A DNA stretch of 64,000 nt from a virus (lineage: Duplodnaviria > Heunggongvirae > Uroviricota > Caudoviricetes): IMG/VR virus record IMGVR_UViG_3300025429_000011, positions 18,527 to 82,526 of that record. The stretch is one strand, 5' to 3'. The position numbers and the translations under genes were made by a program. Below, piece by piece: positions 1,074-57,250 of this stretch. The notes under the pieces were generated by a model, which saw only the letters and a program-made list of their open reading frames with translations, was not told the origin of the DNA and searched no databases. How positions within the stretch are numbered: the first letter of the stretch is position 1; the number at the start of each line of letters is the position of its first letter.

Positions 1074-1389
1074 CCTTACTATAGATAAAGGCACTGACTT
1101 TATCTACAATATACATTTAATAGATTCTTCTGGGGTACCTGTTGACATTTCTGATTTTACAGGAAACTCTCAAATGAGAACATCCTATTCGTCCAATGTG
1201 CATGTAACATTGGACGTTGCAATATCAACAGCTAATAATGGGCTTATAACTCTATCAATGAATTCTGAAACTTCTAGCACACTTACTGCGTCTAGATATC
1301 TCTATGATTTAACACTAACAAGTAGTAACAATGTAGTTTCCAGATTAATGGAAGGCTTTGTTACTATTAATCCTAGTGTAACGCGTTAA
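1057..1389 (+). CDS. Hypothetical small Ser/Thr-rich protein downstream of the fibre, possibly a structural or fibre accessory protein.
   Basis: 110-aa ORF overlapping the previous stop. Codon usage is consistent with its neighbours. Confidence 0.4.
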   Translation: MSAQNNLTIDKGTDFIYNIHLIDSSGVPVDISDFTGNSQMRTSYSSNVHVTLDVAISTANNGLITLSMNSETSSTLTASRYLYDLTLTSSNNVVSRLMEGFVTINPSVTR

Positions 1390-7200: not shown

Positions 7201-10200
7201 TGGTCCTTCTGGTGCATTTGCTGGTATGGGTTATACCGGTTCTATTGGTTCATTGGGTTATTCTGGATCTATTGGATATACTGGTTCTATAGGTATACAA
7301 GGTTCAATTGGCCCACAAGGCTACACAGGCTCTGTTGCTAACCCATCAGCTCCTGTAAGACAGAACTTTAACGGTGACGGTGTAACTAACACATACAGTA
7401 TTGATATCGGTCAAAACGTTAACGGTTATACACCTTATCAATTAGACGTTTATATTAACGGTGTAAAACTCTTTAACGGTATAGATGTCGATGTATCATC
7501 TGGTAATACCATACACTTTATTACCCCACCGAGAAAAGATGATAATATCGAAGTTGTAGGGTCATATATTTTCTCTACAAACCCAGATAGTGCAGCATTA
7601 TTTGGACCTAGAGGTTATACTGGGTCTGCTGGTCCACCTAACGGATATCAAGGATCTTTAGGTGAAACTGGCTATGTAGGTTCTAGAGGTTATACAGGTT
7701 CAACACCTAATCCTTCTGCACCTGTAAGACAAAATTTTAACGGTGATGGTACAACCAATACTTACTATATTGATATTGGTCAGAATGTAAATGGTTATAC
7801 ACCTTATCAGCTAGATGTTTATGTCAACGGTGTTAAGCTTTTCAATGGTATTGATGTTGATGTATCTTCTGGTAACTCTATTCATTTTATTACACCACCT
7901 AGAATAAACGATAACATTGAAATAGTTGGATCTTATATCTTTTCAACTAATCCAGACAGTGCTGCATTGTTTGGTCCAAGAGGGTATACTGGATCTCAAG
8001 GTCCACCAAACGGGTATCAAGGTTCTATTGGTGACATTGGTTATACTGGTTCTAGAGGCGATACTGGGTTTTCTGGTTCTGCTGGTACTATTGGTTACTC
8101 TGGTTCTGGTGTAAGTTTTAGAAGTTACTATAATAATACTACAAATTACTATATTAATGATTTAGTAGAAGAAGATGGTGCCACTTACATTGCTATTGCA
8201 CCTAGTATAGGAGAAGATCCTAAAACTAGCAACACATACTGGCAATTATTTGCTAGCAAAGGATATCAAGGTTCTAGAGGTTATACAGGTTCTACTCCTA
8301 ACCCATCGTCTCCTGTAAGACAAAACTTTAACGGTGATGGTGTTTCTAGAACTTATTATATTGATATTGGGCAAAATGTCAATGGTTATACTCCTTACGA
8401 GTTAGATGTATTCGTAAACGGTATTAAATTGTTTAACGGTCTTGATGTTGATGTATCATCTGGTAATGCTATTCACTTTGTAATACCGCCGAGAATAAAC
8501 GATAATATCGAAGTAGTAGGGTCATATATTTTCTCTACTAATCCTGATCAAAATGCATTATTTGGGCCAAGAGGTTATACTGGTTCAGCAGGATTAAACG
8601 GGGCTGGTAATTCATTTACTAAAATTGTTGTTAGCGGTCAACCAGATTTAGTAGCATTAGAAGCAGATACTCTTCAAATAGTTGCTGGTGATAATATAGT
8701 TATATCAACTAACAATATTAATTCACCTAAAACTTTAACAATTTCTACATCACTGCCATCTGGTGCATCTGGTTATACAGGTTCGCAAGGTATAACGGGT
8801 TATATAGGTTCTATAGGAATTACCGGTTATACAGGATCAAGAGGATCTGATGGTGTTATAGGTTATAGTGGAAGTATAGGTTTCACAGGTTCTAAAGGGT
8901 CTGATGGCACTATAGGTTATACAGGATCGCAAGGTAATATAGGAAATACTGGAGATACTGGCTATACCGGATCAAGTGGAATAGACGGTGCAGTAGGTTA
9001 TAATGGAAGTATAGGGTTCACAGGTTCTAAAGGGTCTGATGGTACTATAGGTTATACTGGATCTACAGGACCTGTAGCCGGATATGATACTCAAATTATA
9101 TTTAATGATGGTAGTTATGCTAATGGTTCTTATGGATTAACTTATAATAAATCTACTCAAACATTAAACATAGGAAATAATCTTTATGTAGGTGGTAACA
9201 TTTATATCACCGGCAACACTACAACTTTTGCTGCTAATAATTTAGAAATAGTAGATAATATGATCTACTTAAATTCTAATAGTGAATATTCAAATCCCGA
9301 TATTGGTTTTGCTGCAAATTATAATGACGGTGAATATCATCATACCGGTTTCTTTAGAGATCATGCAACAGGTATTTGGAAGGTATTTGAAAATTATAAA
9401 CCAGAACCGCAAGCATCACAATTTATTGATCAATCTAATAATACCTTTAGAATAGCAGATTTTCAAGCAAATACTATTTTTGCTAATTCAATATATGCAA
9501 ATGGTTCTTACGGTTCTTTTGGTCAAGTACTTATTTCTAATGGTTCAGGAATATTCTGGTCAACTTCTGCATTAGGGTTTAATGGTTCAACAGGGTATCA
9601 AGGTTCTTTAGGTGATACTGGCTACAAAGGTTCAATTGGTTACCAGGGTTCAGTTGGTAATCAAGGTATTTTTGGTTACCAGGGTTCTTCTGGCTACCAA
9701 GGATCAGTTGGTTATCAAGGAACTGTAGGTTTTCAAGGTTCAGCTGGCGCTACCGCCGATGCTGGTTATCAAGGAAGTGCAGGTTATCAGGGATCAGTAG
9801 GATTTCAAGGATCTTATGGATATCAAGGTACTGTAGGATTCCAAGGTTCTATAGGAGCTGTTGGATATCAAGGATCAGCAAGTGTTGGCTATAACGGTTC
9901 TACTGGATTTAATGGTTCTATAGGTAATAGAGGTCCTATAGGTTATACTGGATCAAAAGGTCAAGGATTTAATTGGAGAGGAGCTTGGGACGGAACACAT
10001 AATGATTTTGGTGATTATCAAGTATACCTTCCTTATGATGTAGTACAATATGATCTAAACACATATGTTTGTATAGTATTATGTTATGGTGATTCTGGTA
10101 CTCCTGCTGCAAGAACAGATTTATGGCAGATATTTGCAGAAGGTGTAGTAGGTTATGTTGGATCTAAAGGTCAAGATGGTGTACTGGGTTATAATGGTTC

Positions 10201-10858
10201 TATAGGTTATACAGGCTCAAAAGGTGATAATGGCGTTATTGGATATAACGGTTCTATAGGATATACAGGTTCTACTGGATTTGTTGGATCTTCTGGAGCA
10301 TCAGTTTATCAAGGCTATACTGGATCTACTGGTTATCAGGGTTCTAAAGGTGAAAGTTCTTATATTACCTCTGATACTGCACCTTCTAGTCCTTTAGTTG
10401 GAGATAGATGGTATAATACTACAGCTGGTATTGAACTAGTATGGACTTATGATGGTAATTCTTATCAGTGGGTAGAATTAGCTGCAAGCGGTTTCTTAGG
10501 TATGACCGGATATTCTGGTTCAATAGGAACTATAGGGTATACAGGTTCAGCTGCACAATCATTAATAAATTCAACTCAAAGTTCAATTTATGTTTTACAA
10601 TCTTCGGATGATGGTAAATTAATTAATACATCTTATAGCGTTACTATACCTTCAAATGTATTTACAGCAGGTCAGACAATTACAATATATAACAGTAGCC
10701 AAACTAACGGTATTACAGTTACTCAAGGAAGCGGCACAACCGTATATTTGGTTAATACTACTTCTGTTGGAGACAGAACAGTAGGAGTAAATGGTATTGC
10801 AGTTATAATATGCGTGGATAATAATACTTTTGTTATTTCTGGTGGTGGTGTATCTTAA
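4235..10858 (+). CDS. Giant (2207 aa) collagen-like tail-fibre or whisker-like structural protein. It has many G-X-Y runs (GYTGSIGYTGS..) interspersed with repeated beta-rich modules.
   Basis: Continuous ORF with collagen triplet periodicity. Six copies of an ILVSVNGLLQVPxxDYTVSG..EIIYF module sit in the N-terminal third. Three near-identical ~95-aa modules (NPSAPVRQNFNGDG..) follow in the middle. Confidence 0.85.
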   Translation: MSSDILNQHLIGNGSNTQFTLLEAVANTSSILVTINGLVSDPDRDYTVSDNLLLFNTAPYSTSDIEIRYLPVVPVGYTGSAGEPAGYTGSAGPVGAPSDIQTIVATGSSYYTLTSTPNSSKNILVSVNGLLQVPEADYTVSGSTINFNTIPVELSDIEIIYFGNVVGYRGSAGFQGSVGFTGSIGYSGNDGYTGSIGYTGSIGGAGPAGYTGSGGVAAPSGFQTFLTDNRTSYPIDRVVASSKDILVSVNGLIQVPDADYIVVGSNINFITKPSNNSDVEILYFDVAGFIGSTGYLGSTGFKGSSGDNGLPGFVGSQGYTGSSGFVGSMGYVGSGGVAAPSEIQTIVADGSSTYTLTRYVVDPKHIFVIVNGLIQIADRDYTAAATTLTFYNPPNNTSEIEIIYFEEALGYRGSVGYAGSAGTPGGSTGYTGSRGTDGSFGYTGSTGYVGSAGVGAPSSYQILYANGSNTVFTLTSSVDAAKNILVSVNGLLQIPDTDYTVSGTTILFTNPPSDTSHIEVLYFDVSGYRGSTGYMGSKGDPGGDTGYTGSIGPKGDIGPLGYTGSVGFGYTGSAGPVGAPTNYQTIVTTFNQSTYSLNQDVAQAVSIIVTINGLVQVPDQDYTLPTSNTITFTNTPNPNSDVEILYFSASGFTGSRGAVGYLGSVGYQGTVGFSGSAGITGYMGSAGSGFTGSIGYSGSTGFAGSRGSLGYTGSIGIGYTGSVGSGYTGSTGAGYTGSIGSLGYTGSQGFQGLTGYRGSTGSTGFVGSIGLTGSIGYTGSTGAGFVGSRGFVGSIGSLGYTGSIGFTGSIGYSGSRGDIGFSGSIGSLGYTGSIGIGYTGSTGAPGGITYNYRFINTPVVTPAFTQQGYAVFSATSNAIYVTSADLAGANTAYFIEYALKSVNNSIKGFVTLSRASTPYDVTIYSTNTAIYFPYPAVPAFHKIYLSYLSGNTTPYLDNEIINISFTLTGSQGPKGDKGDIGYTGSAGPAGPSGAFAGMGYTGSIGSLGYSGSIGYTGSIGIQGSIGPQGYTGSVANPSAPVRQNFNGDGVTNTYSIDIGQNVNGYTPYQLDVYINGVKLFNGIDVDVSSGNTIHFITPPRKDDNIEVVGSYIFSTNPDSAALFGPRGYTGSAGPPNGYQGSLGETGYVGSRGYTGSTPNPSAPVRQNFNGDGTTNTYYIDIGQNVNGYTPYQLDVYVNGVKLFNGIDVDVSSGNSIHFITPPRINDNIEIVGSYIFSTNPDSAALFGPRGYTGSQGPPNGYQGSIGDIGYTGSRGDTGFSGSAGTIGYSGSGVSFRSYYNNTTNYYINDLVEEDGATYIAIAPSIGEDPKTSNTYWQLFASKGYQGSRGYTGSTPNPSSPVRQNFNGDGVSRTYYIDIGQNVNGYTPYELDVFVNGIKLFNGLDVDVSSGNAIHFVIPPRINDNIEVVGSYIFSTNPDQNALFGPRGYTGSAGLNGAGNSFTKIVVSGQPDLVALEADTLQIVAGDNIVISTNNINSPKTLTISTSLPSGASGYTGSQGITGYIGSIGITGYTGSRGSDGVIGYSGSIGFTGSKGSDGTIGYTGSQGNIGNTGDTGYTGSSGIDGAVGYNGSIGFTGSKGSDGTIGYTGSTGPVAGYDTQIIFNDGSYANGSYGLTYNKSTQTLNIGNNLYVGGNIYITGNTTTFAANNLEIVDNMIYLNSNSEYSNPDIGFAANYNDGEYHHTGFFRDHATGIWKVFENYKPEPQASQFIDQSNNTFRIADFQANTIFANSIYANGSYGSFGQVLISNGSGIFWSTSALGFNGSTGYQGSLGDTGYKGSIGYQGSVGNQGIFGYQGSSGYQGSVGYQGTVGFQGSAGATADAGYQGSAGYQGSVGFQGSYGYQGTVGFQGSIGAVGYQGSASVGYNGSTGFNGSIGNRGPIGYTGSKGQGFNWRGAWDGTHNDFGDYQVYLPYDVVQYDLNTYVCIVLCYGDSGTPAARTDLWQIFAEGVVGYVGSKGQDGVLGYNGSIGYTGSKGDNGVIGYNGSIGYTGSTGFVGSSGASVYQGYTGSTGYQGSKGESSYITSDTAPSSPLVGDRWYNTTAGIELVWTYDGNSYQWVELAASGFLGMTGYSGSIGTIGYTGSAAQSLINSTQSSIYVLQSSDDGKLINTSYSVTIPSNVFTAGQTITIYNSSQTNGITVTQGSGTTVYLVNTTSVGDRTVGVNGIAVIICVDNNTFVISGGGVS
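4300..6200 (+). repeat. Six diverged copies of a ~40-aa module (I[LI]V[ST][IV]NGL[LIV]Q[VI]PDxDYT..[ST][DE][IV]E[IV][IL]YF), alternating with collagen G-X-Y stretches, period ~350 nt.
   Basis: Read directly in the protein translation at residues ~30, 120, 250, 365, 480 and 590. Confidence 0.7.
7327..8575 (+). repeat. Three tandem near-identical ~95-aa domain repeats (NPSAPVRQNFNGDGVTNTYSIDIGQNVNGYTPYQLDVYINGVKLFNGIDVDVSSGN.IHFITPPR..NIEVVGSYIFSTNPDSAALFGPRGYTGS).
   Basis: Copies begin at about nt 7331, 7715 and 8282. They are ~85-90% aa identical, with many synonymous nucleotide differences. Confidence 0.8.
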
Positions 10859-37087: not shown

Positions 37088-38470
37088 ATGAACGGTTTAA
37101 ATGAAGAATTAGTTGCAAAGTGGAAGCCAGTGCTTGAGCACTCAGATCTTCCAAGAATTGCTGACGCCCACAAGCGTTCAGTAATTGCTACACTTCTAGA
37201 AAATACTGAAAAGGAAATGCGTTCTGAAGCAATGGCACGTGGTTCTTATAACGGTATTACATCTCTTAACGAAACTGGTATCAATGCTGTTGGTACTGGC
37301 GGTTATGGTTCAGCTGGCGGCTCAGGCGTTGCTGGTTACGATCCAATCCTTATCTCATTGATTCGTCGTGCAATGCCTAATCTTATTGCTTATGACGTTT
37401 GCGGTGTTCAACCAATGACTGGTCCAACTGGACTTATCTTTGCTATGCGTTCACAATATGCAAACTCAACTGCAAAAGGTTCAGAAACATTCTATGACGA
37501 AGTTAACACTGGTATGTCATCTGGCTTCAATGGCACTGGCGTATTTGGTCAAGGTACTGGTTCAGGCATTGGTGCTAACAACGTTGGTTCAACACCTGAC
37601 AACACTGGCGGTGTTGGTTCATACAACTATCAAGCTGGTGCTCCTACATCAACAGCAGAAGCTTTTGGTACAGGTACTACATTCCCAGAAATGGCCTTCT
37701 CAATTGATAAGGTTTCTGTAACTGCAGTATCACGTGCTCTAAAGGCAGAATACACTATTGAATTGGCACAAGATCTAAAGGCTATCCATGGATTGGATGC
37801 TGAGACTGAATTGTCAAACATTCTTCAGTCTGAAATTCTTGCTGAAATCAATCGTGAAGTTATTCGTGCTATTAACATTACTGCACGTCAAGGTGCTACA
37901 GACGGTACTACACAAGCTGGTATCTTCGATCTTGATACTGATTCAAACGGCCGCTGGTCAGTTGAAAAGTTCAAGGGTCTTATGTTCCAACTTGAAAGAG
38001 AAGCTAACAAGATCTCAAAAGACACACGTCGTGGTAAGGGTAACCTAGTTATCTGCTCTTCAGATGTTGCATCTGCTCTTCAGATGGCTGGCGTACTTGA
38101 CTATACACCTGCTCTTGCTTCTAACAACCTACAAGTTGATGATACTGGCAATACATTCGCTGGTGTTCTAAACGGACGCTTCAGAGTATATGTTGATCCA
38201 TATACAACTGGTAACTATATGACTGTTGGCTATAAGGGTGCTAATGCATTCGATGCAGGTATCTTCTATTGCCCATACGTTCCACTACAAATGGTTCGTG
38301 CAGTTGGTCAAGCAGACTTCCAACCAAAGATTGGATTTAAGACTCGTTATGGAATGGTAGCAAATCCATTTGCTCGTTCACAACAAGGTTCACCAAATCT
38401 TTCAGACGGTACACTATCTGCTTCTACTAACAGCTACTATCGTAGAACAATCATCCAAAACATCTTCTAA
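37088..38470 (+). CDS. 23: Major capsid protein gp23.
   Basis: AYDVCGVQPMTGPTGLIFAMR matches the T4 gp23 motif (VQPM.SPTGQVFALR). 460 aa. Confidence 0.9.
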   Translation: MNGLNEELVAKWKPVLEHSDLPRIADAHKRSVIATLLENTEKEMRSEAMARGSYNGITSLNETGINAVGTGGYGSAGGSGVAGYDPILISLIRRAMPNLIAYDVCGVQPMTGPTGLIFAMRSQYANSTAKGSETFYDEVNTGMSSGFNGTGVFGQGTGSGIGANNVGSTPDNTGGVGSYNYQAGAPTSTAEAFGTGTTFPEMAFSIDKVSVTAVSRALKAEYTIELAQDLKAIHGLDAETELSNILQSEILAEINREVIRAINITARQGATDGTTQAGIFDLDTDSNGRWSVEKFKGLMFQLEREANKISKDTRRGKGNLVICSSDVASALQMAGVLDYTPALASNNLQVDDTGNTFAGVLNGRFRVYVDPYTTGNYMTVGYKGANAFDAGIFYCPYVPLQMVRAVGQADFQPKIGFKTRYGMVANPFARSQQGSPNLSDGTLSASTNSYYRRTIIQNIF

Positions 38471-38496: not shown

Positions 38497-38529
38497 CTAA
38501 AAAAGGCCCCGAAAGGGGCCTTTTTCTTT
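38497..38529. terminator. Bidirectional rho-independent terminator with a 7-bp GC stem and a GAAA tetraloop (aaaaaaggccccgaaaggggcctttttcttt).
   Basis: An A-run and a T-run flank the GC-rich hairpin. It lies between the convergent gp23 (+) and the minus-strand block. Confidence 0.8.
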
Positions 38530-38536
38530 ATTTAAA

Positions 38537-38788
38537 TTATTTTTTATAAAGCCAAGTATTAAATATATCTGCCATTTGACATACTTGTTCACTTGTCATA
38601 ATAACGCCGTTCACCTCATTGCCTGGTGATGCTACAAGTTCATTAATATGCTTACACCATTCAATAGACTTATCTAAAGCCCATTGACGATTCCAAATAC
38701 GATCTGCTTTCTCGCGACGAGCAATACTTTCTGGTGTTTCTTTTGGAACTTCAAATTCTTCATTCATTCTGTTACTACCTTTCTCCAT
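38537..38788 (-). CDS. Hypothetical protein.
   Basis: 83-aa ORF, last gene of the minus-strand block. Confidence 0.4.
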   Translation of the reverse strand: MEKGSNRMNEEFEVPKETPESIARREKADRIWNRQWALDKSIEWCKHINELVASPGNEVNGVIMTSEQVCQMADIFNTWLYKK

Positions 38789-39075
38789 TGACCATCTTTA
38801 CGTTTTAACCAAAGATCGCCATCATCACCTACTGCCATTGTTACTGCTTTATTAGGATCTGGTTGATGCATTCTCACTAATGATATTTTATATTGATCAG
38901 GATTATCAAATTGTGTCTTCTTCATTTCTGTAGTATCAACTTTAGATGCACCATTAAGAGTTATACTAAAAGCAGTATCTAAAGGTACACCATCTGCTGT
39001 TGCTGCTCTTGCTCCTTCAGCAACCAAAGCAAGAGGAGCTACAGGTAGGAATGCAAAGAAACTACGACGATTCAT
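38764..39075 (-). CDS. Small exported protein with a twin-arginine (Tat) signal peptide.
   Basis: MNRRSFFAFLPVAPLALVAEGARAATA carries the RRxFF Tat motif, a hydrophobic core and an AxA cleavage site. Confidence 0.55.
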   Translation of the reverse strand: MNRRSFFAFLPVAPLALVAEGARAATADGVPLDTAFSITLNGASKVDTTEMKKTQFDNPDQYKISLVRMHQPDPNKAVTMAVGDDGDLWLKRKDGQWRKVVTE

Positions 39076-40268
39076 TGTTTCACCTCCGGTAATGGTGCCT
39101 TAGGAGCTAATCCAATCAATGCATCAATCATTTGTGGAGTGACTACAATAGGCAATCCATGCTTATCCAAACCTGAACCAAGACCTTCTTGTACCTTAAG
39201 ACCAGCAACTGCCTGAAGAATAGGAAGTGCAGAAGCAAGCTTAGTAGCAATATAACGATCGTTAACAGCTTTCTGAACTGATTGATCAAACTCAAACGTA
39301 TCTGCCCATCCAATAAAGTCTAGAGTAATACCAACAGAAGCAAAGTATTCTTTTACGCTCTTTTGAATACTTTCCATCATAGGTACCATATCTTCATTAG
39401 CCTGATCAAATGTACGTTTGCCGATTTCAGCACAAACAAGTGTCTGAACCTTCTTACGGCCTACATCATCCATAACATTAGCCAATGAACGCCCATAATA
39501 AACAGATGTAAAGATTACTTGTGGATCATTACGATTACCTTGTTGTGGAACTACACCAAAGCGGTAAAGAAACTTAGCCGCATCAACTTCTGATACAGAT
39601 GCGCCAATAGAAACACCTGCTGTAATATTCAAACCTTCCTTTGATTGACAAGGAAATGATTGATCTGAAGAAGCAGTTCCACGATTAGCAGACTTTACCC
39701 ATTCACGAGAGTAGGGGGTACGATCAACAATAATCAAACGACCTGTAGGTACATAAAAGTCCCAATTCAAAAAGCCGCCTGAATTACTCAACTTAGCATG
39801 AGGAACAATAAAACGCTTTGCAGCAATCTTATTATCACTCAAATATGATTCAGAATCAAACTTGGCTTGAGTATCTTTGTTTGCACCAACATCTGGAATC
39901 CAGAATGCTGATTCATTAGGAAGAATTGTATATGCTTCTGTCTTGTCAACAGTATCAGCATATGCAAATGCCTGTTGAGGATGTGCAATTATCACAAGCA
40001 ATAACAGCGCAGTAGATGCAGCCAGAAATTCTTGAATTTTATTCTTCCAAATAGCAAACAGAGTAACAAAAAGCACTAGCGTTGAAATAAAATACACCGT
40101 GTTATTGATTGCAAAAACAAAACTCGTTGTAAGGTAAGTTGTTGTACTGTTATCAAATTGACTGCCTGCAACAGATCCTGTAATCAAAGTAGCCAAAGGA
40201 TTAACTATACTAATTATTGTCATATAGACAAAAAAAGTAATAGCAGTTTTAATAATATTGCCGATCAT
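39072..40268 (-). CDS. Membrane protein with N-terminal transmembrane helices and a large C-terminal domain (possibly SPFH/band-7-like).
   Basis: IIKTAITFFVYMTIISIV.., ..FISTLVLFVTLFAIW and ..LLLLVIIA are hydrophobic helices. The C-terminal region has an alternating beta/alpha pattern. Family assignment is tentative. Confidence 0.5.
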   Translation of the reverse strand: MIGNIIKTAITFFVYMTIISIVNPLATLITGSVAGSQFDNSTTTYLTTSFVFAINNTVYFISTLVLFVTLFAIWKNKIQEFLAASTALLLLVIIAHPQQAFAYADTVDKTEAYTILPNESAFWIPDVGANKDTQAKFDSESYLSDNKIAAKRFIVPHAKLSNSGGFLNWDFYVPTGRLIIVDRTPYSREWVKSANRGTASSDQSFPCQSKEGLNITAGVSIGASVSEVDAAKFLYRFGVVPQQGNRNDPQVIFTSVYYGRSLANVMDDVGRKKVQTLVCAEIGKRTFDQANEDMVPMMESIQKSVKEYFASVGITLDFIGWADTFEFDQSVQKAVNDRYIATKLASALPILQAVAGLKVQEGLGSGLDKHGLPIVVTPQMIDALIGLAPKAPLPEVKQ

Positions 40269-40291
40269 TATAAATGCTCCATTATAAAGCG

Positions 40292-41077
40292 TTACAGTTT
40301 AATTAAATCTTCTAGTTGATATTTCTGTGACATATAGCTAGAAACATTGTCTAAGACTGTTCTTTCTAAATCACCTTCACGTCTAGGATATTCATTAACA
40401 GTAAAGTCTACATTATTAACTTTTTTAAAAGCTCTAATAATAGCTCTTACTGTATAACCAATACCAGTACCTAAATTTTCCAAACCATTAGCAGGTTTGT
40501 CTATTGCTTTAATTAAAGCTTCACATATTTCGTTTACATGAACATAATCTCTAATACAAGTACCATCAGGTGTATTATAATCTGTACCGTAAAGATTAAA
40601 TTCACCGGTATTTGCAGCTTTAATTAAATTATAAAGAAGACCGTCCGGGTTAGTAGGAGGAAAACCATCAGTTCCTATTACGTTATAAAATCTAAAAATA
40701 GTATAATTAAGATCTTTTTTATTGCAAACTTCTTTTACCACATCTTCACATGCACGCTTTGAAAATGCATATGGATTATTAGGGCTAGATGCAGTCCCTG
40801 AAGAAGCAAAAATAAAATTATTATAAACAATCTTATTAAGTATATTAATTGTTCCACCAAGATTGTTATTATAATACTTAGAAGGTTCTTTAACCGATTC
40901 GTTAACCCTTACTAGTGCAGCAAGATGAATTACTGTATCTACAGAATAAAAAGTGAGTTTATCATTAATATCACCTTCATACTCTATTACTTCATACAAG
41001 TCATTATAATGTGAAAGCATCTTTACTAAATGCTGACCAATATAACCCTTACTGCCTGTAATAATAATTTTTTTCAT
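40292..41077 (-). CDS. NAD-dependent nucleotide-sugar epimerase/dehydratase (SDR family).
   Basis: Rossmann motif IIITGSKGYIGQHL and catalytic YxxxK (YAFSKRACE). Confidence 0.8.
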   Translation of the reverse strand: MKKIIITGSKGYIGQHLVKMLSHYNDLYEVIEYEGDINDKLTFYSVDTVIHLAALVRVNESVKEPSKYYNNNLGGTINILNKIVYNNFIFASSGTASSPNNPYAFSKRACEDVVKEVCNKKDLNYTIFRFYNVIGTDGFPPTNPDGLLYNLIKAANTGEFNLYGTDYNTPDGTCIRDYVHVNEICEALIKAIDKPANGLENLGTGIGYTVRAIIRAFKKVNNVDFTVNEYPRREGDLERTVLDNVSSYMSQKYQLEDLIKL

Positions 41078-41081
41078 TTAG

Positions 41082-41276
41082 TTAACGGATAACTTTCAAG
41101 TGATCAAAAACATAACCTGATGCTTTCAAGAATGTTTCAAATTGGCTTAACACAACATGAAGATTAGCTTCTGTAGCATCAAATGATATTTCTACTGTCT
41201 GGTCAGGATGATCATCCATTCCGCTGTTGACCATATCCATACGGAATGTGTATGTTACACTAAAATCGTCATTCAT
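41082..41276 (-). CDS. Hypothetical small protein.
   Basis: 64-aa ORF in the operon-like minus-strand array. Confidence 0.35.
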   Translation of the reverse strand: MNDDFSVTYTFRMDMVNSGMDDHPDQTVEISFDATEANLHVVLSQFETFLKASGYVFDHLKVIR

Positions 41277-41686
41277 AATATAAACTCCAAATGATCTTCT
41301 ACTACCTTAAAACGCACTGTTTGAGGATTGCCATTAATCTTAGTATAGTCTCTACCCCCATCAATAGCAACTTTATCGGCCGCACGATAATCATGACGGT
41401 ACCGACTATATACGACTTTCTCACCTAAAACAATACCGGTATACTCTACTTCTGTAGCTGAGATGCCATTAGCAATCATTAGATCACCATCCATATCAAA
41501 ATACAAACCAAAATAGTTAGAACCTTCTGGATGAGCTTTTTCTGTGTAGAAAATAGCACATGGAAAGTTGCCCCAGTCTCCACTCTTAAGTCTCAAACAC
41601 GAATCAAAGATATAAGTAGCATTATATTTCTCTTCTATTTTTGCTATAGAATCTGGTCTAAGAAATGATGAAGTGTCTATCCACAT
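41273..41686 (-). CDS. Hypothetical protein.
   Basis: 137-aa ORF with overlapping stop/start with its neighbours. Confidence 0.45.
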   Translation of the reverse strand: MWIDTSSFLRPDSIAKIEEKYNATYIFDSCLRLKSGDWGNFPCAIFYTEKAHPEGSNYFGLYFDMDGDLMIANGISATEVEYTGIVLGEKVVYSRYRHDYRAADKVAIDGGRDYTKINGNPQTVRFKVVEDHLEFIL

Positions 41687-41992
41687 TTATTTTTTCCTAT
41701 AGTACATTGTATAAATTTTTTCTAACCCAACTTTGTTCGGATGCTTATGAATCCATTGTCCTGTATATGGGCTAAACTCTTTTTGGAAGTACAAATCCAT
41801 TATATCGTTTTCTGTAGAAATGGCAATATTTATTTTAGATGCAAGTTCATCAAACTCAGCATCAGTCATAATAGAATCTGAATGTACTTCATAAGCATAA
41901 GCTGCTACTGATAATTTAATTCTATTTCGTCTTTCTATTTCAACCGGTGACCCCCAATTAGACTTAACTTCCATAAAGTCTTCTATACTCAA
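41687..41992 (-). CDS. Hypothetical protein.
   Basis: 101-aa ORF. Confidence 0.4.
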   Translation of the reverse strand: MSIEDFMEVKSNWGSPVEIERRNRIKLSVAAYAYEVHSDSIMTDAEFDELASKINIAISTENDIMDLYFQKEFSPYTGQWIHKHPNKVGLEKIYTMYYRKK

Positions 41993-42348
41993 GACATACC
42001 TACTATATGCTTACAGTTACGACGGAACATAAAAGCCTGACAAGTACAAGACTTATAATTCTCTCCTACAGTTACAATATAAGTATCACCTTTAGAACCT
42101 GTAACTGAAAAAGTGCGCTCTTTTACTGCTTCTGTTTTAAAAGAAGTAGCAGCACCATCCATTTCTATAATATCTTCTTTAGGTATGATACGAAACTTAA
42201 ACTTAGTATTTTCGCTTGTAGTAAGAGCAATAGCATCATACTCTACCCATTTAGGAGTAGCAACAAGCTCTCCTTCATAGGTATAGTAATTTTGTCCCAT
42301 TGTACGGTGAGAGTTTTTAACTGTAACTTTCATTGCTTTGACACACAA
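41989..42348 (-). CDS. SWIM-type zinc-finger protein.
   Basis: C-terminal KSCTCQAFMFRRNCKHIVGM matches the CxCxnCxH SWIM motif. Confidence 0.5.
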   Translation of the reverse strand: MCVKAMKVTVKNSHRTMGQNYYTYEGELVATPKWVEYDAIALTTSENTKFKFRIIPKEDIIEMDGAATSFKTEAVKERTFSVTGSKGDTYIVTVGENYKSCTCQAFMFRRNCKHIVGMS

Positions 42349-42515
42349 GTAATATAAGGATGTAAGGAAGCAAACTCTTTTGCGATCATTTTAGATGATA
42401 CTTCACAATGAGCTTTATCTTTTACTGGTGTCTCAATAGTTACTTTAGATTTCTCTACACCAGTAAAAGATAAAGATACAATCATAACTAGAACATAAGA
42501 CATATTAACGATCAA
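42330..42515 (-). CDS. Hypothetical small membrane-associated protein.
   Basis: 61-aa ORF with a hydrophobic N-terminus (MIVNMSYVLVMIVSLSF). Confidence 0.3.
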   Translation of the reverse strand: MIVNMSYVLVMIVSLSFTGVEKSKVTIETPVKDKAHCEVSSKMIAKEFASLHPYITCVSKQ

Positions 42516-42690
42516 TTGCTAAATCATGATAGTAGTCAGCTGCATCTCCAAGATACTCTTGAAGGCGGTTATCAATTTCTTCTGAATTACTACAAACTAT
42601 ATCATAGGCTTCAGACCAATCCATTAATGGATTTTTATCCATAAGTTCCTCGACCATCTTGTCAAGAATTTGAACCCATAGTTCTTTCAT
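42505..42690 (-). CDS. Hypothetical small acidic protein.
   Basis: 61-aa ORF. Confidence 0.3.
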   Translation of the reverse strand: MKELWVQILDKMVEELMDKNPLMDWSEAYDIVCSNSEEIDNRLQEYLGDAADYYHDLAIDR

Positions 42691-42693
42691 ATA

Positions 42694-43023
42694 TTACATG
42701 CTCCAGTAAGTTTCTTTCGAAGGATCACAAGCAAGAGGAGTAGAAGCAAGAATCGTAACATCCTTGCCGGTCATAAGGCTCTTAACAACCTTAGTACGAG
42801 TTTCTTCCGTATGCTGAGCCTTTGCTTTCTTAAGATGCAGCTTAGCATTACCAATCTTCAAACCCAACTTATGGCAGAGTTCAGAAAGAATAACTTCGTC
42901 GGTATCACCCTTACGAAGCGAACCCATGATAAAATTACGAACTTCATTCCGTTTATGACGCATTTGAGTATCTCCATTTCTCATCTTATAATTAATCATA
43001 GCGGTTTTAGGAAAATAATGCAA
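42694..43023 (-). CDS. Hypothetical protein.
   Basis: 109-aa ORF. Confidence 0.4.
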   Translation of the reverse strand: MHYFPKTAMINYKMRNGDTQMRHKRNEVRNFIMGSLRKGDTDEVILSELCHKLGLKIGNAKLHLKKAKAQHTEETRTKVVKSLMTGKDVTILASTPLACDPSKETYWSM

Positions 43024-43033
43024 CTGTTATTTT

Positions 43034-43405
43034 TTACCCTACCTTAACATAGCAAACTTCTTCGATATCAATAAAATCTTCCTTCACTTCATATTCATAG
43101 TTATCAGTACCGTCACCTAAAAACATTTTTTCACTATATCTCAATTCTTCCATAAACTTTTTATCAATTTTTTCTCCTACAAACTCAACAGATACGTAAC
43201 CAGAATCTTCAAACCGATACCAACCTTTTTTAGTAACTACTTCATTAATAGTATCAACATCACCACCAAAGAATTCTTCTGCCGACATACTACCTAATTC
43301 GAATTTATCCATAAATTCTTTTGCTAATTTGTTCATTTTCATCTCTCCATTTATCATATTATTATAATCGTATAAATCTGATATAAAATCTACTGTTTTT
43401 TTCAT
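43034..43405 (-). CDS. Hypothetical acidic protein, first gene of the minus-strand block.
   Basis: 123-aa ORF. Upstream of it lies the divergent control region. Confidence 0.45.
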   Translation of the reverse strand: MKKTVDFISDLYDYNNMINGEMKMNKLAKEFMDKFELGSMSAEEFFGGDVDTINEVVTKKGWYRFEDSGYVSVEFVGEKIDKKFMEELRYSEKMFLGDGTDNYEYEVKEDFIDIEEVCYVKVG

Positions 43406-43413
43406 AAAAACGC

Positions 43414-43500
43414 CATTGAAATCATTGAGTTTTTTTAGATCTAGCTAACTTATTGAAATCATTATACTTTTTATATCAAAAAAACTCAATGATTTCAATG
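43414..43500. promoter_or_regulatory. Perfect 23-bp inverted repeat (cattgaaatcattgagttttttt ... aaaaaaactcaatgatttcaatg) separated by ~41 bp, in the 166-bp divergent intergenic region. A third partial copy (tattgaaatcatta) sits in the spacer.
   Basis: Read directly. Arms at 43414-43436 and 43478-43500. It lies between the divergently transcribed blocks. Confidence 0.7.
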
Positions 43501-43571
43501 TCGTTTTTTTATAGATTTTATTATAAAAACATGCTATATTTAATTATAAGATAAAATAAAGGAGATAAAAA

Positions 43572-43772
43572 ATGACAAAACGTATTTTCGCCACTTTTGA
43601 CTTCGAGCACGAAACAGTTCTCGGCGACCTTTTAGACCTTTTATTCTGCTATCAAGGTAAAATTGAATCTTTTTTTCCTCGTGAAGATGTATGGGTTTTG
43701 ACTCTATCTTTTTCAGCAGAAAAAGAATTAAAAAGCTTTATAGAAGATTTAGGTCGTGATCCGATTTACTAG
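43572..43772 (+). CDS. Hypothetical small protein.
   Basis: 66-aa ORF with RBS aaaggagat 6 nt upstream. Confidence 0.45.
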   Translation: MTKRIFATFDFEHETVLGDLLDLLFCYQGKIESFFPREDVWVLTLSFSAEKELKSFIEDLGRDPIY

Positions 43773-43827
43773 TTGCTATTATTTTCAAAATACCGTATAT
43801 TAGTATTATGAGAAATGGAGAAGTGAA

Positions 43828-44043
43828 ATGAATGTCAATGAAGCAATATCATTAGCTAATCAGCTTGAACTTTTAATTACTAATTCTCTCACATACAATA
43901 TGTCTCGAGAACAGCTCATACAAGGGATAGGATTTGTATCTAAGGAGCTACGTGAGTATGCGGATAAGCTAGATTCTGATATGTATAACGAATTAGGTCA
44001 TGCATACGAGAAGTATGATGATGCAATGGTTGTTGGAGGTTAA
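43828..44043 (+). CDS. Hypothetical small protein.
   Basis: 71-aa ORF with RBS aatggagaag upstream. Confidence 0.45.
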   Translation: MNVNEAISLANQLELLITNSLTYNMSREQLIQGIGFVSKELREYADKLDSDMYNELGHAYEKYDDAMVVGG

Positions 44044-44044
44044 T

Positions 44045-44449
44045 ATGATCCCTGTTACTTTTCCTGCTGGTCGTTATCTCATTGGTGATCTTTGCTACCG
44101 TGATGAATATATGTGGGATGCTATGCTTAATACACCTATGGGTAAAAAAGGCAAAGTAGAGAATTCCTATGAAGGTACTGTTCATGATTTTTGTATTTTA
44201 AGGACTAAGTGGGGTGATGGTGGTTATGATGATCAATATGGTAACGAATATTTTGTAGATTCTGGTACAATTGGAATTATGAGCTGGAATCAAGATAAAA
44301 AAGATAGCGGTACTGGTCGCACTTTTAATTTTGCCGGTCCGTTTCAAGTATATGAAGAAAACGGTAAGTTGGTTTTTGGTAGTATCATCATTAATACTGA
44401 TCCAGTATATGAAGAAAAAGAAGAATATGAACTAGAGGAGACATTCTAA
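44045..44449 (+). CDS. Hypothetical protein (start taken at the ATG at 44045 rather than the overlapping 44000).
   Basis: MIPVTFPAGRYLIGDLCY... The ATG abuts the upstream stop and is preceded by GGAGG. Confidence 0.45.
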   Translation: MIPVTFPAGRYLIGDLCYRDEYMWDAMLNTPMGKKGKVENSYEGTVHDFCILRTKWGDGGYDDQYGNEYFVDSGTIGIMSWNQDKKDSGTGRTFNFAGPFQVYEENGKLVFGSIIINTDPVYEEKEEYELEETF

Positions 44450-44450
44450 T

Positions 44451-44630
44451 ATGGATAAGCTATTAATTTTTTTAGGTGCTTTGGTTATCATTATCATCGG
44501 ACCGTTTCTTTCAATCTGGGCATTGGATACTCTTTTCCCAGTGCTTAATATCCCCTATACACTTGAAACATGGTTTGCTGCTGCAATTTTGTCAGCTGGG
44601 GTATATACTAGACCTAATAAGAAAGGTTGA
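44451..44630 (+). CDS. Small (59 aa) two-helix membrane protein, not in the supplied ORF track.
   Basis: MDKLLIFLGALVIIIIGPFLSIWALDTLFPVLNIPYTLETWFAAAILSAGVYTRPNKKG. It exactly fills the gap between flanking genes. RBS gaggag. Confidence 0.4.
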   Translation: MDKLLIFLGALVIIIIGPFLSIWALDTLFPVLNIPYTLETWFAAAILSAGVYTRPNKKG

Positions 44631-44632
44631 TT

Positions 44633-44812
44633 ATGTTTAACTTACAGGCTTGCTATTCTATCAATGATATACTATTCTCAGTATCATTGTTTACAATGAT
44701 TTTAACAGTCATTGTTACATTTACGTATTTGATGGTTACGTTGATTAAAGATGCAGTGTTTGAAGTACAAGACATGAAATCTAAGAAAGATAGAGCCATA
44801 AATACTCAATGA
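44633..44812 (+). CDS. Small hydrophobic protein.
   Basis: MFNLQACYSINDILFSVSLFTMILTVIVTFTYLMVTLIK.. contains one transmembrane helix. Confidence 0.35.
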   Translation: MFNLQACYSINDILFSVSLFTMILTVIVTFTYLMVTLIKDAVFEVQDMKSKKDRAINTQ

Positions 44813-57165: not shown

Positions 57166-57177
57166 TTGAAATACATG

Positions 57178-57214
57178 AGGTTCTTTTCAGTTGATTTTTT
57201 ACTGAAAAGAACCT
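57178..57214 (+). terminator. Perfect 14-bp stem hairpin (aggttcttttcagt / actgaaaagaacct) with a 9-nt T-rich loop, after folE.
   Basis: Read directly. An A/T-rich tract follows. Confidence 0.5.
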
Positions 57215-57250
57215 ATTATTATAATTATAGGAAGAAATGGAGAATCACCT

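Follow-up and report, generated by a model that had tools for sequence, protein, structure and literature searches.

A reverse-strand accessory operon between the capsid gene and gp3 of a T4-like phage

Organisation of the locus and its control signals

The window analysed is a 64-kb stretch of DNA from a T4-like phage (source contig up to 229 kb) whose capsid protein shares 66% identity with that of Stenotrophomonas phage DLP6. Twelve minus-strand ORFs (o1–o12), packed closely or overlapping, occupy positions 38537–43405, with gp21, gp22 and the major capsid gene gp23 on one side and gp3, uvsY and uvsW on the other, as described in the first-pass annotation. All 12 are uninterrupted in at least one diverged relative. 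For several ORFs with a TTG start, gene callers place the start a few codons later, at an ATG. That annotation had also placed all flanking genes on the plus strand, which holds for the neighbours, and GC skew is negative over 38.0–43.7 kb and positive to either side; a second minus-strand unit, at 1386–4169, is the sole exception among the remaining long ORFs of the window. The GC content of the block is similar to that of the rest of the phage.

The end of the block next to gp23 is marked by a bidirectional intrinsic terminator (38500–38525) that serves gp23 on the plus strand and o1 on the minus strand. The hairpin, AAAAAGGCCCC-GAAA-GGGGCCTTTTT, has an 11–12-bp stem and a GAAA loop, folds with about −19 to −20 kcal/mol on either strand, and is followed by a U-run on both strands. 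The only Rfam matches at this site, on both strands, were to terminator-bearing sRNA models, and all were sub-threshold.

The opposite end opens into a 166-bp divergent control region (43406–43571). In addition to an inverted repeat, this region has ATTGAAATCATT three times and, on the minus strand, sigma-70-like sites (43498–43461). The repeat arms (43406–43436 and 43478–43508) are 31 nt long and complementary at 30 of 31 positions, with the 23-nt perfect core noted at first reading. The fold z-scores are −7.5 and −8.9, and none of 200 shuffled sequences folds equally well. The control-region element is retained in the related loci L010, L061, L064, L078 and L058, with varying orientation and copy number. 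Two sigma-70-like sites, TTGAAA-17-TATAAA and TTGAGT-17-TATAAT, aim into the block. The promoter assignment is uncertain, since the −10 elements of the window are degraded in L010 and L061.

Thirteen copies of the late-promoter core ATAAATA lie on the plus strand, mostly immediately upstream of late genes, including gp23, gp3 and others; none was found at the 5′ end of the block. A lone late-like ATAAATA with an adjoining 11/12 sigma-70-like site lies inside o7 (41833–41799), and this pair could allow separate expression of o6–o1. From these motifs, early timing of the block is plausible. A further cassette, TTGnTn-17-TATATT with a GGAGA site, recurs ahead of genes that differ between relatives.

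Five small ORFs on the plus strand (p1–p5, 43572–44812) make up the second arm of this variable region; p4 and p5 encode single-TM proteins. This arm includes a promoter-plus-Shine-Dalgarno cassette at 43773–43827, and its content differs among relatives.

For eight of the 12 block proteins, no Pfam family scores above the gathering cut-off. SPFH, SDR epimerase, Nlig-Ia and SWIM domains could be identified, and no homologue carries a virion-protein annotation; together, these results support the view, also taken in the first-pass annotation, that the genes are non-structural. The 4.9-kb block is a true reverse-strand operon of non-structural accessory genes, and the evidence supports its action as a single unit from the divergent control region to the bidirectional terminator.

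Backbone and cargo genes

Five genes, o8, o7, o6, o2 and o1, form a clade-conserved backbone; o3, o4 and several orphans vary between phages. The four gene identities proposed earlier (Tat-type o2, membrane protein o3, epimerase o4 and SWIM protein o8) are all correct.

The first gene of the backbone, o8 (41989–42348), encodes a small SWIM zinc-finger protein (Pfam SWIM, 21.8 bits; cut-off 19.6). Its family comprises 392 clusters at 50% identity, and the CxCx8CxH protein is encoded immediately upstream of o7 in all clade loci where the fetched DNA covers the position. The o7 product (41687–41992) is about 100 residues long and contains only domain Ia, the NAD+-binding domain of NAD-dependent ligases (PF22745, E=6.4e-11, 43.2 bits; cut-off 27); it resembles the solo Nlig-Ia proteins described in phages (Iyer, Burroughs, Aravind et al. 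2022, PMC9503650). Its alignment to the N-terminus of E. coli LigA by hhalign is weak (probability 20%) and pairs Y34/E35/D44/F47/D48 with Y22/H23/D32/Y35/D36. Of the NMN-binding set, the Tyr and two Asp residues are retained; an invariant Glu stands in place of LigA His23, and Phe in place of Tyr35. Also unlike other solo Nlig-Ia genes, o7 is always preceded by the SWIM gene and followed by the DUF7695 gene in this clade, a linkage absent from 60 other phage loci. That DUF7695-family protein, o6 (41273–41686), has 137 residues.

The 103-residue o2 product (38764–39075) has a signal peptide of the twin-arginine (Tat) type together with a small beta domain. Its MNRRSxF motif is nearly invariant over 30 members of a family of more than 120 clusters, and a C-terminal motif, MAVGDDGNLWLKRKDGxWKRVVTE, is also conserved. 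The AF2 model (pLDDT 72) gave only weak fold matches, to single beta-propeller blades. The o1 ORF (38537–38788) begins inside o2, sharing 25 nt with its end. The 83-residue cytoplasmic product had no family match in Pfam, PHROG or NCBIfam; homologues are present in 14 related loci and share the core WN(K/R)QWALDKS(I/V)EW(C/S)KH.

Among the cargo, o3 (39072–40268) encodes a 398-residue protein that combines three TM segments at its N-terminus with an SPFH/Band-7 domain (Pfam Band_7, 28.5 bits; cut-off 23.6). SPFH/Band-7 ORFs have been reported in the T4-like phages 44RR, Aeh1 and RB43 (Nolan et al. 2006, PMC1524935), and o3 is likewise a membrane-anchored SPFH domain encoded by a non-core "novel ORF" of a T4-like phage. 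Its domain probably faces the periplasm, as in bacterial HflK/HflC. It differs from these proteins by having three N-terminal TM helices rather than one and by matching chromosomally encoded proteins from Acetobacteraceae and Rhodospirillales from end to end at 50–63% identity; there is also no partner of the NfeD or HflC type. By these comparisons, o3 is an SPFH/Band-7 membrane protein of alphaproteobacterial type, and it looks like a cellular gene that moved into phages, or the reverse. Another homologue, gp65 of Bacillus phage G, carries a lipoprotein signal (LAGC). The 64-residue acidic protein o5 (41082–41276, phrog_935) is 57–63% identical in loci that also carry o3.

Between these two genes, o4 (40292–41077) encodes a compact, 261-residue GalE-like NAD-dependent sugar epimerase (Pfam Epimerase, E=5.7e-31). 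It displays the extended-SDR signature (GxxGxxG, a Ser and YxxxK) common to GalE and the phage "nucleotide-sugar epimerases" (phrog_540), its best structural matches are to GalE, and GxxGxxG and YxxxK are kept in the alignment to the E. coli enzyme. However, it scores 171.8 against the GalE equivalog model, below the 262.3 cut-off, and is shorter than GalE (about 338 residues): it has a shortened version of the segment equivalent to GalE residues ~28–64 and lacks the last ~30 residues. Identity to other phage epimerases is just 28–34%. In the relatives examined that do not carry o4, o5 abuts o3 directly, and the GC content of o4 is 29%, compared with 35–38% for its neighbours. By sequence comparison, o4 is a single-gene insertion found, among the relatives examined, in this strain only.

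The promoter-proximal cargo consists of o9–o12. The 57–61-residue o9 protein (42330–42515) begins with a hydrophobic signal or anchor and has two conserved cysteines; the gene contains a 19-bp perfect inverted repeat that its relatives do not share. The o10 gene (42505–42690) encodes a very acidic 61-residue orphan (pI 4.1) with homologues in L010 (93%) and L079 (74%), and o11 (42694–43023) a basic orphan of about 101–109 residues (pI 9.8) with a conserved C-terminal ...TP..C.P..E.YWSM; its homologue in L011 is on the opposite strand. The ORF of the acidic orphan o12 spans 43034–43405; however, its most likely start is 43336 (100 residues) rather than 43405, the block start given in the first-pass annotation, since GGAG, an 8-nt spacer and ATG are found there and L061 is identical to about this point and unrelated beyond it. 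If so, 43337–43405 would belong to the conserved leader. In L061, the control region and leader are near-identical as far as the Shine-Dalgarno site, after which an unrelated protein is encoded.

Distribution and recombination

The gp23–gp3 junction is nearly empty in distant relatives and filled by the block here: DLP6 has a single gene between gp23 and gp3, and in Melnitz and many distant IMG/VR relatives the two genes are adjacent or at most 1.7 kb apart. About 20 related uncultured IMG/VR loci, with gp23 59–95% identical to that of the window, carry an opposite-strand series o8-o7-o6-(o5-o3)-o2-o1 directed toward gp23. One phage whose gp23 is 68% identical still has o6, a lipoprotein and o2 at the same site. 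The block is not the idiosyncratic island first proposed; it is a syntenic operon, conserved in the clade and carrying swappable cargo, and lies in a variable region of a known type.

Identities within the block do not follow those of the capsid gene. L009 has a gp23 95% identical to that of the window, yet its o1, o2, o6, o7 and o8 products are just 47–64% identical; conversely, L061 has gp23 at 78%, yet o6, o7 and o8 at 85–92%. The mismatch in L009 and its reversal in L061 show, at the level of sequence identity, recombinational shuffling of the block among related phages. L010 shares o9–o12 at 91–98%, yet o1 at 50%.

Interpretation of the operon

The first-pass annotation had read the block as an early host-takeover or anti-defence cassette. 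Early expression is plausible from the promoter motifs, but PADLOC returned no significant match, and an anti-defence function has no direct support. Small acidic proteins acting as DNA mimics or inhibitors, with an Nlig-Ia protein sensing or buffering NAD+ against defences that deplete it, such as Thoeris, SIR2 or DSR, would suit the very acidic o10, o12 and o5 (pI 4.1–4.4), the early-type promoters, the fast evolution of the block proteins and their shuffling relative to core genes, and the proposal that phage solo Nlig-Ia proteins are NAD+ sensors (PMC9503650). We consider such a dedicated cassette unlikely: the Pfam, PHROG and NCBIfam matches include no known anti-defence protein, the export or membrane signals of three products fit poorly with a cytoplasmic role, and Nlig-Ia beyond this clade occurs in replication and nucleotide-metabolism neighbourhoods. 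Also rather improbable is a coherent envelope or glycan pathway, in which the epimerase would provide a sugar nucleotide that, with the exported proteins and a 927-residue glycosyltransferase (1386–4169), serves to change the surface glycans of the host and so to mask receptors or exclude superinfecting phages. The window has just two minus-strand units, both with sugar enzymes (GT1+GT2 and o4), and o2, o3 and o9 are envelope-targeted; however, the glycosyltransferase is 35 kb distant, no transporter or flippase is present, and among relatives examined o4 occurs only here and o3 in a subset, while the backbone persists.

The position beside gp23 and gp3 and the ATAAATA within o7 might suggest that these accessory genes are late or act in morphogenesis, for instance as head decoration proteins or assembly factors. 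This is very improbable, given transcription opposite to the late genes, the 5′ end devoid of a late motif, export signals on several products and a search that found no structural homologues. Least credible is a recently acquired foreign mobile element that inserted beside the capsid gene and whose end is the inverted repeat. The opposite orientation, the conspicuous repeat at one end and the empty site in distant relatives are compatible with it, but both repeat arms lie at the same end, within the intergenic control region, Pfam and PHROG detected no integrase, transposase or homing endonuclease, the GC content is phage-like, and the operon occupies this site throughout a clade whose gp23 identities fall as low as about 59–68%.

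We favour, with a probability of about 60%, an accessory operon of mixed content, probably early and shuffled by recombination, in a hyperplastic region (HPR) between gp23 and gp3. HPRs with promoter-early stem-loop (PeSL) cassettes are known from T4-type phages (Arbiol et al. 2010, PMC2839356; Comeau et al. 2014, PMC4122927). The recurrent promoter cassettes and the L061 leader followed by a different gene match their description. Further shared features are a variable run of ORFs, mostly small orphans, set between conserved core modules and differing in content from one close relative to another, sigma-70-like promoter cassettes that recur at gene boundaries with AT-rich tracts upstream of them, a stem-loop-forming sequence that overlaps the promoter, and a terminator that shields late virion genes. 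The candidate promoter cassettes are unrelated in sequence to the RB49/phi1 PeSLs and do not have their GGGG/CCCC stems, and the block is tightly packed under one main control region instead of having a PeSL ahead of each ORF. The order of the five backbone genes is also stable over deep divergence, more so than in a typical ORFan cluster. Such retention of order could mean a coherent function, contrary to a mixed-bag reading. The block is an ordinary kind of feature, and some of its proteins are uncharacterised.

As an HPR accessory operon, the block would be transcribed against the late structural genes from the shared divergent control region, most likely by host sigma-70 RNA polymerase early in infection, and the bidirectional terminator would keep this transcription from colliding with that of gp23. 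It would not encode one machine; o5 with o3, the o4 epimerase and the o9–o12 orphans would be interchangeable cargo inserted into the conserved backbone. Related phages would swap gene content and alleles by recombination, with at least some exchange at the conserved promoter, leader and Shine-Dalgarno cassettes.

The operon may serve to condition the infected cell. In the cytoplasm, o7 would bind NAD+, o4 a nucleotide-sugar, and o8 DNA or protein; o9, o3, whose SPFH domain would face the periplasm, and o2, which Tat would export in folded form, would be bound for the envelope. T4 Imm, Sp and the antiholin RI are early envelope proteins of about 100 residues or less. They are not products of the late programme, and they act at the membrane or in the periplasm in superinfection exclusion or lysis control. 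A functional analogy to them is proposed for o2, o9 and o3; these have no sequence or fold similarity to the T4 proteins, and the signal of o2 is twin-arginine rather than Sec-type (RI signal peptide, PMC8385771). Our best guess is that o9, o3 and o2 may stabilise the envelope of the infected cell or exclude superinfecting phages.

Location and boundaries of the block

The block consists of 12 minus-strand ORFs (o1–o12, numbered from the capsid side) at positions 38537–43405, with overlaps or gaps of no more than 23 nt between them. It is flanked by core genes, gp20–gp23 upstream and gp3, UvsY and UvsW downstream, and a switch in the sign of the GC skew coincides exactly with its extent. All other long ORFs in the 64 kb are on the plus strand, with the sole exception of a glycosyltransferase gene (1386–4169, minus strand) whose 927-residue product contains GT1 and GT2 domains. 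This gene is divergent from a plus-strand gene for a protein of 2207 residues (4235–10858).

The major capsid protein gp23, encoded at 37088–38470, shares 66% sequence identity with the capsid protein of Stenotrophomonas phage DLP6 and 57–59% with those of Melnitz, Mosig and cyanomyoviruses. One gene lies at the gp23–gp3 junction of DLP6 and none at that of Melnitz, where the two genes are adjacent, and the gap measures 90 bp to 1.7 kb in about 40 more distant IMG/VR relatives. The corresponding gap in the window is 6.3 kb and is occupied by the minus-strand operon and five small plus-strand ORFs, p1–p5 (43572–44812). The last two of these, p4 and p5 (44451–44812, plus strand), encode single-TM proteins of about 60 residues directly upstream of gp3, a gene with a late-type ATAAATA of its own at 44798. 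A megablast search of 50,697 phage records returned no close relative of the window and no match to the block itself, and nine of the 12 island proteins had no match in these records. A tblastn search of the concatenated island proteins against cultured phages matched only o7, o6 and o3. Metagenome contigs (ENA, JGI and Logan) as long as 229 kb carry exact copies of island proteins.

At the capsid-side end, a hairpin (AAAAAGGCCCC-GAAA-GGGGCCTTTTT, 38500–38525) is accompanied by U-runs on both strands and has a fold energy of about −19 to −20 kcal/mol on either strand. The Rfam search gave nothing above threshold, and no tRNAs were found; the sole matches of the region, all sub-threshold, were at this hairpin, on both strands, to sRNA models that bear terminators. 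Together, these features identify a putative bidirectional terminator, as the first-pass annotation had supposed, that parts the convergent gp23 and o1.

The far end is a divergent region of 166 bp (43406–43571) containing an inverted repeat of 31 nt, of which 30/31 are complementary; its fold z-scores are −7.5 and −8.9, and its core is the 23-bp perfect repeat noticed at first reading. Therefore, an opposite-strand block of 12 genes between the capsid gene and gp3/uvsY is confirmed by its ORFs, strand and skew, and by the hairpin and repeat at its two ends. Three exact copies of ATTGAAATCATT occur within 43406–43571, against an expectation of 1.65 matches over the whole window when up to one mismatch is allowed. 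The divergent control regions of related phages share a 16-nt element, CCATTGAAATCATTGAG, bordered by A- and T-runs (43406–43571 in the window; 3720–3811 in locus L009; 5946–5961 in L058). It is present as two copies plus one inverted copy in the window, L010 and L061, as three tandem copies in L009, and singly in L058, L064 and L078. Since its number and orientation vary, the element may be a candidate protein-binding site or an UP/−35 module, rather than an RNA structure. A conserved RNA structure was rejected because the three same-orientation copies of L009 form no hairpin.

The ATG of o12 at 43405 lacks a ribosome-binding site, and a GGAG is found 8 nt before an ATG at 43336. Additionally, near-identity between L061 and the window extends from p1 across the repeat and stops just short of this GGAG, after which L061 encodes an unrelated protein. 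Thus, 43337–43405 is probably a leader, and o12 would contain about 100 residues.

The motifs of the region bear on the timing of expression. The six occurrences of TATAAATA in the window are all on the plus strand, as are 13 copies of the late core ATAAATA, most of them directly upstream of late genes (gp22, gp23, gp3, sheath and portal among them); the minus strand has two. The late core was not found at the 5′ end of the island, and an ATAAATA within o7 adjoins a site that matches a sigma-70-like consensus at 11 of 12 positions. The repeat copy closest to p1 contains, on the minus strand, TTGAAA-17-TATAAA overlapping TTGAGT-17-TATAAT, with an A-tract before both; the −10 elements of the island are degraded in L010 and L061. 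A search for data on when the phiCbK homologue of o6 is expressed found none. Early expression of the island is plausible from these promoter motifs. Elsewhere in the window, in the replication-gene region, an intergenic composite at 57166–57250 contains TTGAAA, a 13-bp stem-loop (GGTTCTTTTCAGT / ACTGAAAAGAACC), TATTATTATAAT and then GGAG, and looks like a terminator–promoter unit.

Proteins encoded in the block

For eight of the 12 island proteins, no Pfam match exceeds the gathering cut-off. No family could be assigned to o1, o5, o10, o11 or o12; three of these (o5, o10 and o12) are strongly acidic and one (o11) is basic.

Three proteins have features of export or membrane insertion. The N-terminus of o2, M-N-R-R-S-(F/L)-F, fits the Tat n-region motif (similar to (S/T)-R-R-x-F-L-K), with conservation of Arg3, Arg4 and Phe7 at 90% or more across 30 family members. 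It is followed by a weakly hydrophobic h-region, below the hydropathy threshold for a TM segment, and by an AxA-type c-region that reads ...EGARA|A or ...AFAK|E in the family alignment. The Tat-type signal predicted earlier for an island protein is thus present in o2 in all three of its regions, and the family comprises more than 120 clusters. A fixed partnership of o1 with o2, for example as a chaperone, was rejected, as the overlapping downstream ORF is unrelated outside the clade; the MEKGxNRM start shared by these ORFs arises only because they overlap the end of o2, which is conserved.

The SPFH domain of o3 (PF01145, 28.5 bits against a cut-off of 23.6) follows three N-terminal TM segments, with the sequence KNK between TM2 and TM3. 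The homologue in Bacillus phage G is a lipoprotein with an LAGC lipobox, so that an extracytoplasmic location is most likely for the o3 domain. Earlier work had already noted SPFH ORFs in T4-like phages (PMC1524935). Full-length cellular homologues, 50–63% identical to o3, are found in Acetobacteraceae and Rhodospirillales (loci L142, L153, L165 and others), where they are chromosomal and solitary; the GC content of these genomes is 63–70%, versus about 35% for the phage. Homologues of o3 (57%) and o8 (47%) also lie no more than 1.1 kb apart at 5677–8300 of a 493-kb jumbo-phage contig (L141), in surroundings otherwise unrelated to the window.

The third protein, o9, has a hydrophobic N-terminus and two conserved cysteines. 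Its coding sequence contains a perfect 19-bp inverted repeat (42413–42431 / 42457–42475, 25-nt spacer); L010 retains 17/19 of it, and L009 and L011 have lost it. Given this lack of conservation, and of compensatory changes in L009 and L011, the repeat was rejected as a functional element and is probably non-functional.

The o7 protein matches the Nlig-Ia domain (PF22745, 43.2 bits against a cut-off of 27) and, at 95–101 residues, has no fused ligase catalytic module. Solo Nlig-Ia proteins have been described as a class in 81 phages and proposed to be NAD+ sensors (PMC9503650). In a weak alignment (hhalign probability 20%) with E. coli LigA, the NMN/NAD+-binding residues Tyr22, Asp32 and Asp36 are identical in o7, Tyr35 is conservatively replaced by Phe, and His23 by Glu. 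Neither o7 alone nor its profile matched PDB sequences.

The SWIM zinc-finger protein of the first-pass annotation corresponds to o8 (PF04434, 21.8 bits against a cut-off of 19.6), whose CxCx8CxH, of the CxCxnCxH signature, is found in all 18 of the clade homologues detected. This small SWIM family contains about 390 clusters, and longer proteins with the o8 module showed no informative additional domains. Adjacency of SWIM and Nlig-Ia genes (o8–o7) is confined to this clade and was rejected as a general rule, being absent from the 60 loci that have no o8 homologue. The o6 protein is a member of DUF7695, whose more than 2,258 homologues include those of phiCbK-like phages and a cyanophage; it is modelled with confidence (pLDDT 91.5), and no solved structural relative was found.

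The predicted nucleotide-sugar epimerase is o4, a compact SDR with intact GxxGxxG and YxxxK motifs and a Pfam Epimerase match. Its score against the GalE equivalog TIGR01179 (171.8) is below the cut-off of 262.3, and it contains 261 residues versus 332–338 for GalE. Consequently, o4 is filed only as a GalE-like extended SDR. Its gene has a GC content of 29%, against 35–38% in the adjoining genes.

Conservation and shuffling among relatives

Closer relatives were recovered via gp3 and via o7. These contain an opposite-strand operon in the same place, in the order (variable genes), o8, o7, o6, (o5, o3), o2, o1 towards gp23. The order recurs in about 20 distinct contigs, whose gp23 proteins are 59–95% identical to that of the window; the o5–o3 pair is found only in a subset of clade contigs. 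None of the relatives examined has o4, which in the window strain is an insertion placed precisely between o5 and o3. In a UFOVP247-like phage (gp23 68% identical), the same slot contains o6, an ORF of 46 residues, a lipoprotein (Phage_VG64) and o2.

Island genes have been gained, lost and replaced across L009, L010, L011 and L061. In L009 (3173–3646, minus strand) and L011 (4790–5311, minus strand), o10–o12 are replaced by an HExxH protein of 157–173 residues with a weak match, below the cut-off, to the putative metallopeptidase family DUF6782. In L010, o2 and o7 are reduced to truncated remnants. The alleles also differ, with flanks 89–95% identical versus 47–64% for island proteins. For L009, gp23, gp3 and UvsW are 92–95% identical to those of the window, yet o1, o2, o6, o7 and o8 only 47–64%; L061 has a gp23 of 78% identity, yet o6, o7 and o8 of 85–92%; and in L010, o9–o12 are 91–98% identical, yet o1 is only 50%. 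Because island identities are out of step with those of core genes, the pattern is one of apparent allele exchange by recombination among relatives.

A cassette of promoter and Shine-Dalgarno sequence, TTGnTn-17-TATATT ... GGAGA, is found at 43773–43827 of the window and at 3147–3166 and 3673–3692 of L009. It precedes p2 in three phages, as well as two L009 genes missing from the window. The breakpoint between L061 and the window falls just upstream of the o12 Shine-Dalgarno sequence. Together, the cassette and this breakpoint appear to parallel the gene shuffling mediated by promoter-early stem-loop (PeSL) cassettes (PMC2839356, PMC4122927). Any likeness would lie in the repeated promoter and Shine-Dalgarno cassette and in the overlap of the hairpin-forming repeat with −35/−10-like hexamers. 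However, the window cassette sequences are unrelated to published PeSLs, and the island has only one stem-loop/promoter region, whose −10 is not kept in L010 or L061.

Nature of the operon

Hyperplastic regions of T4-type phages are blocks of variable content, rich in ORFans, that separate conserved core modules (PMC2839356, PMC4122927). The window block resembles them in its position between conserved core-gene blocks, in the variation of gene content and alleles among relatives while the flanks stay conserved, and in its wealth of small ORFs without recognised homologues. The evidence best supports an accessory operon of early type that fills a hyperplastic region, with a conserved backbone (o8, o7, o6, o2 and o1) and exchangeable cargo. 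The non-structural character proposed at first reading is supported. The products would provide several independent host-conditioning functions, rather than form one machine. At least three of them (o9, o3 and o2) are predicted to be sent to the envelope, and other products would bind NAD+, a nucleotide sugar, or DNA or protein. Imm, Sp and RI of T4 are analogues for such envelope roles, and by this analogy the envelope products would most likely act in superinfection exclusion or envelope stabilisation.

Two other accounts of the block were weighed. The suggestion that it is an anti-defence cassette gained no direct support: PADLOC, Pfam, PHROGs and NCBIfam returned no relevant defence or anti-defence family for the island proteins, and the best PADLOC E-values (0.02–0.04) are at chance level. 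The fast evolution of the proteins, the acidic orphans and the predicted NAD+-binding domain of o7 keep it alive as a minority hypothesis. Origin of the block as a mobile element is unlikely, since no recombinase was found, both arms of the repeat lie on a single side of the block, and the operon keeps to the gp23–gp3 site throughout the clade.

For the accessory operon, a more specific proposal, to which we give little credence, is that the backbone comprises two uncharacterised modules, a cytoplasmic NAD+ trio and small effectors exported by Tat. The SWIM, Nlig-Ia and DUF7695 proteins could sense or protect the NAD+ pool during takeover, for instance against NAD+-depleting immunity, and DUF7695 would contribute a fold without a solved relative. 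The o2 family could represent a class of small phage effectors that cross the membrane via Tat in the folded state; as single beta-propeller blades, they might come together as a lectin-like ring in the periplasm and there block superinfection or stabilise the envelope.

The block is real and clearly bounded, and it belongs to a known kind of feature; a few of its protein families are uncharacterised yet widespread, and current understanding is not overturned by it. It documents a gp23–gp3 hyperplastic region for a poorly sampled T4-like clade known only from metagenome-derived contigs. Unusually for this region, an ordered five-gene backbone is kept while the surrounding cargo is swapped. The solo, putatively NAD+-binding ligase domain is now placed in a fixed gene neighbourhood, and the operon makes three large families without a known function concretely testable: DUF7695, the small SWIM proteins and the Tat-signal protein.
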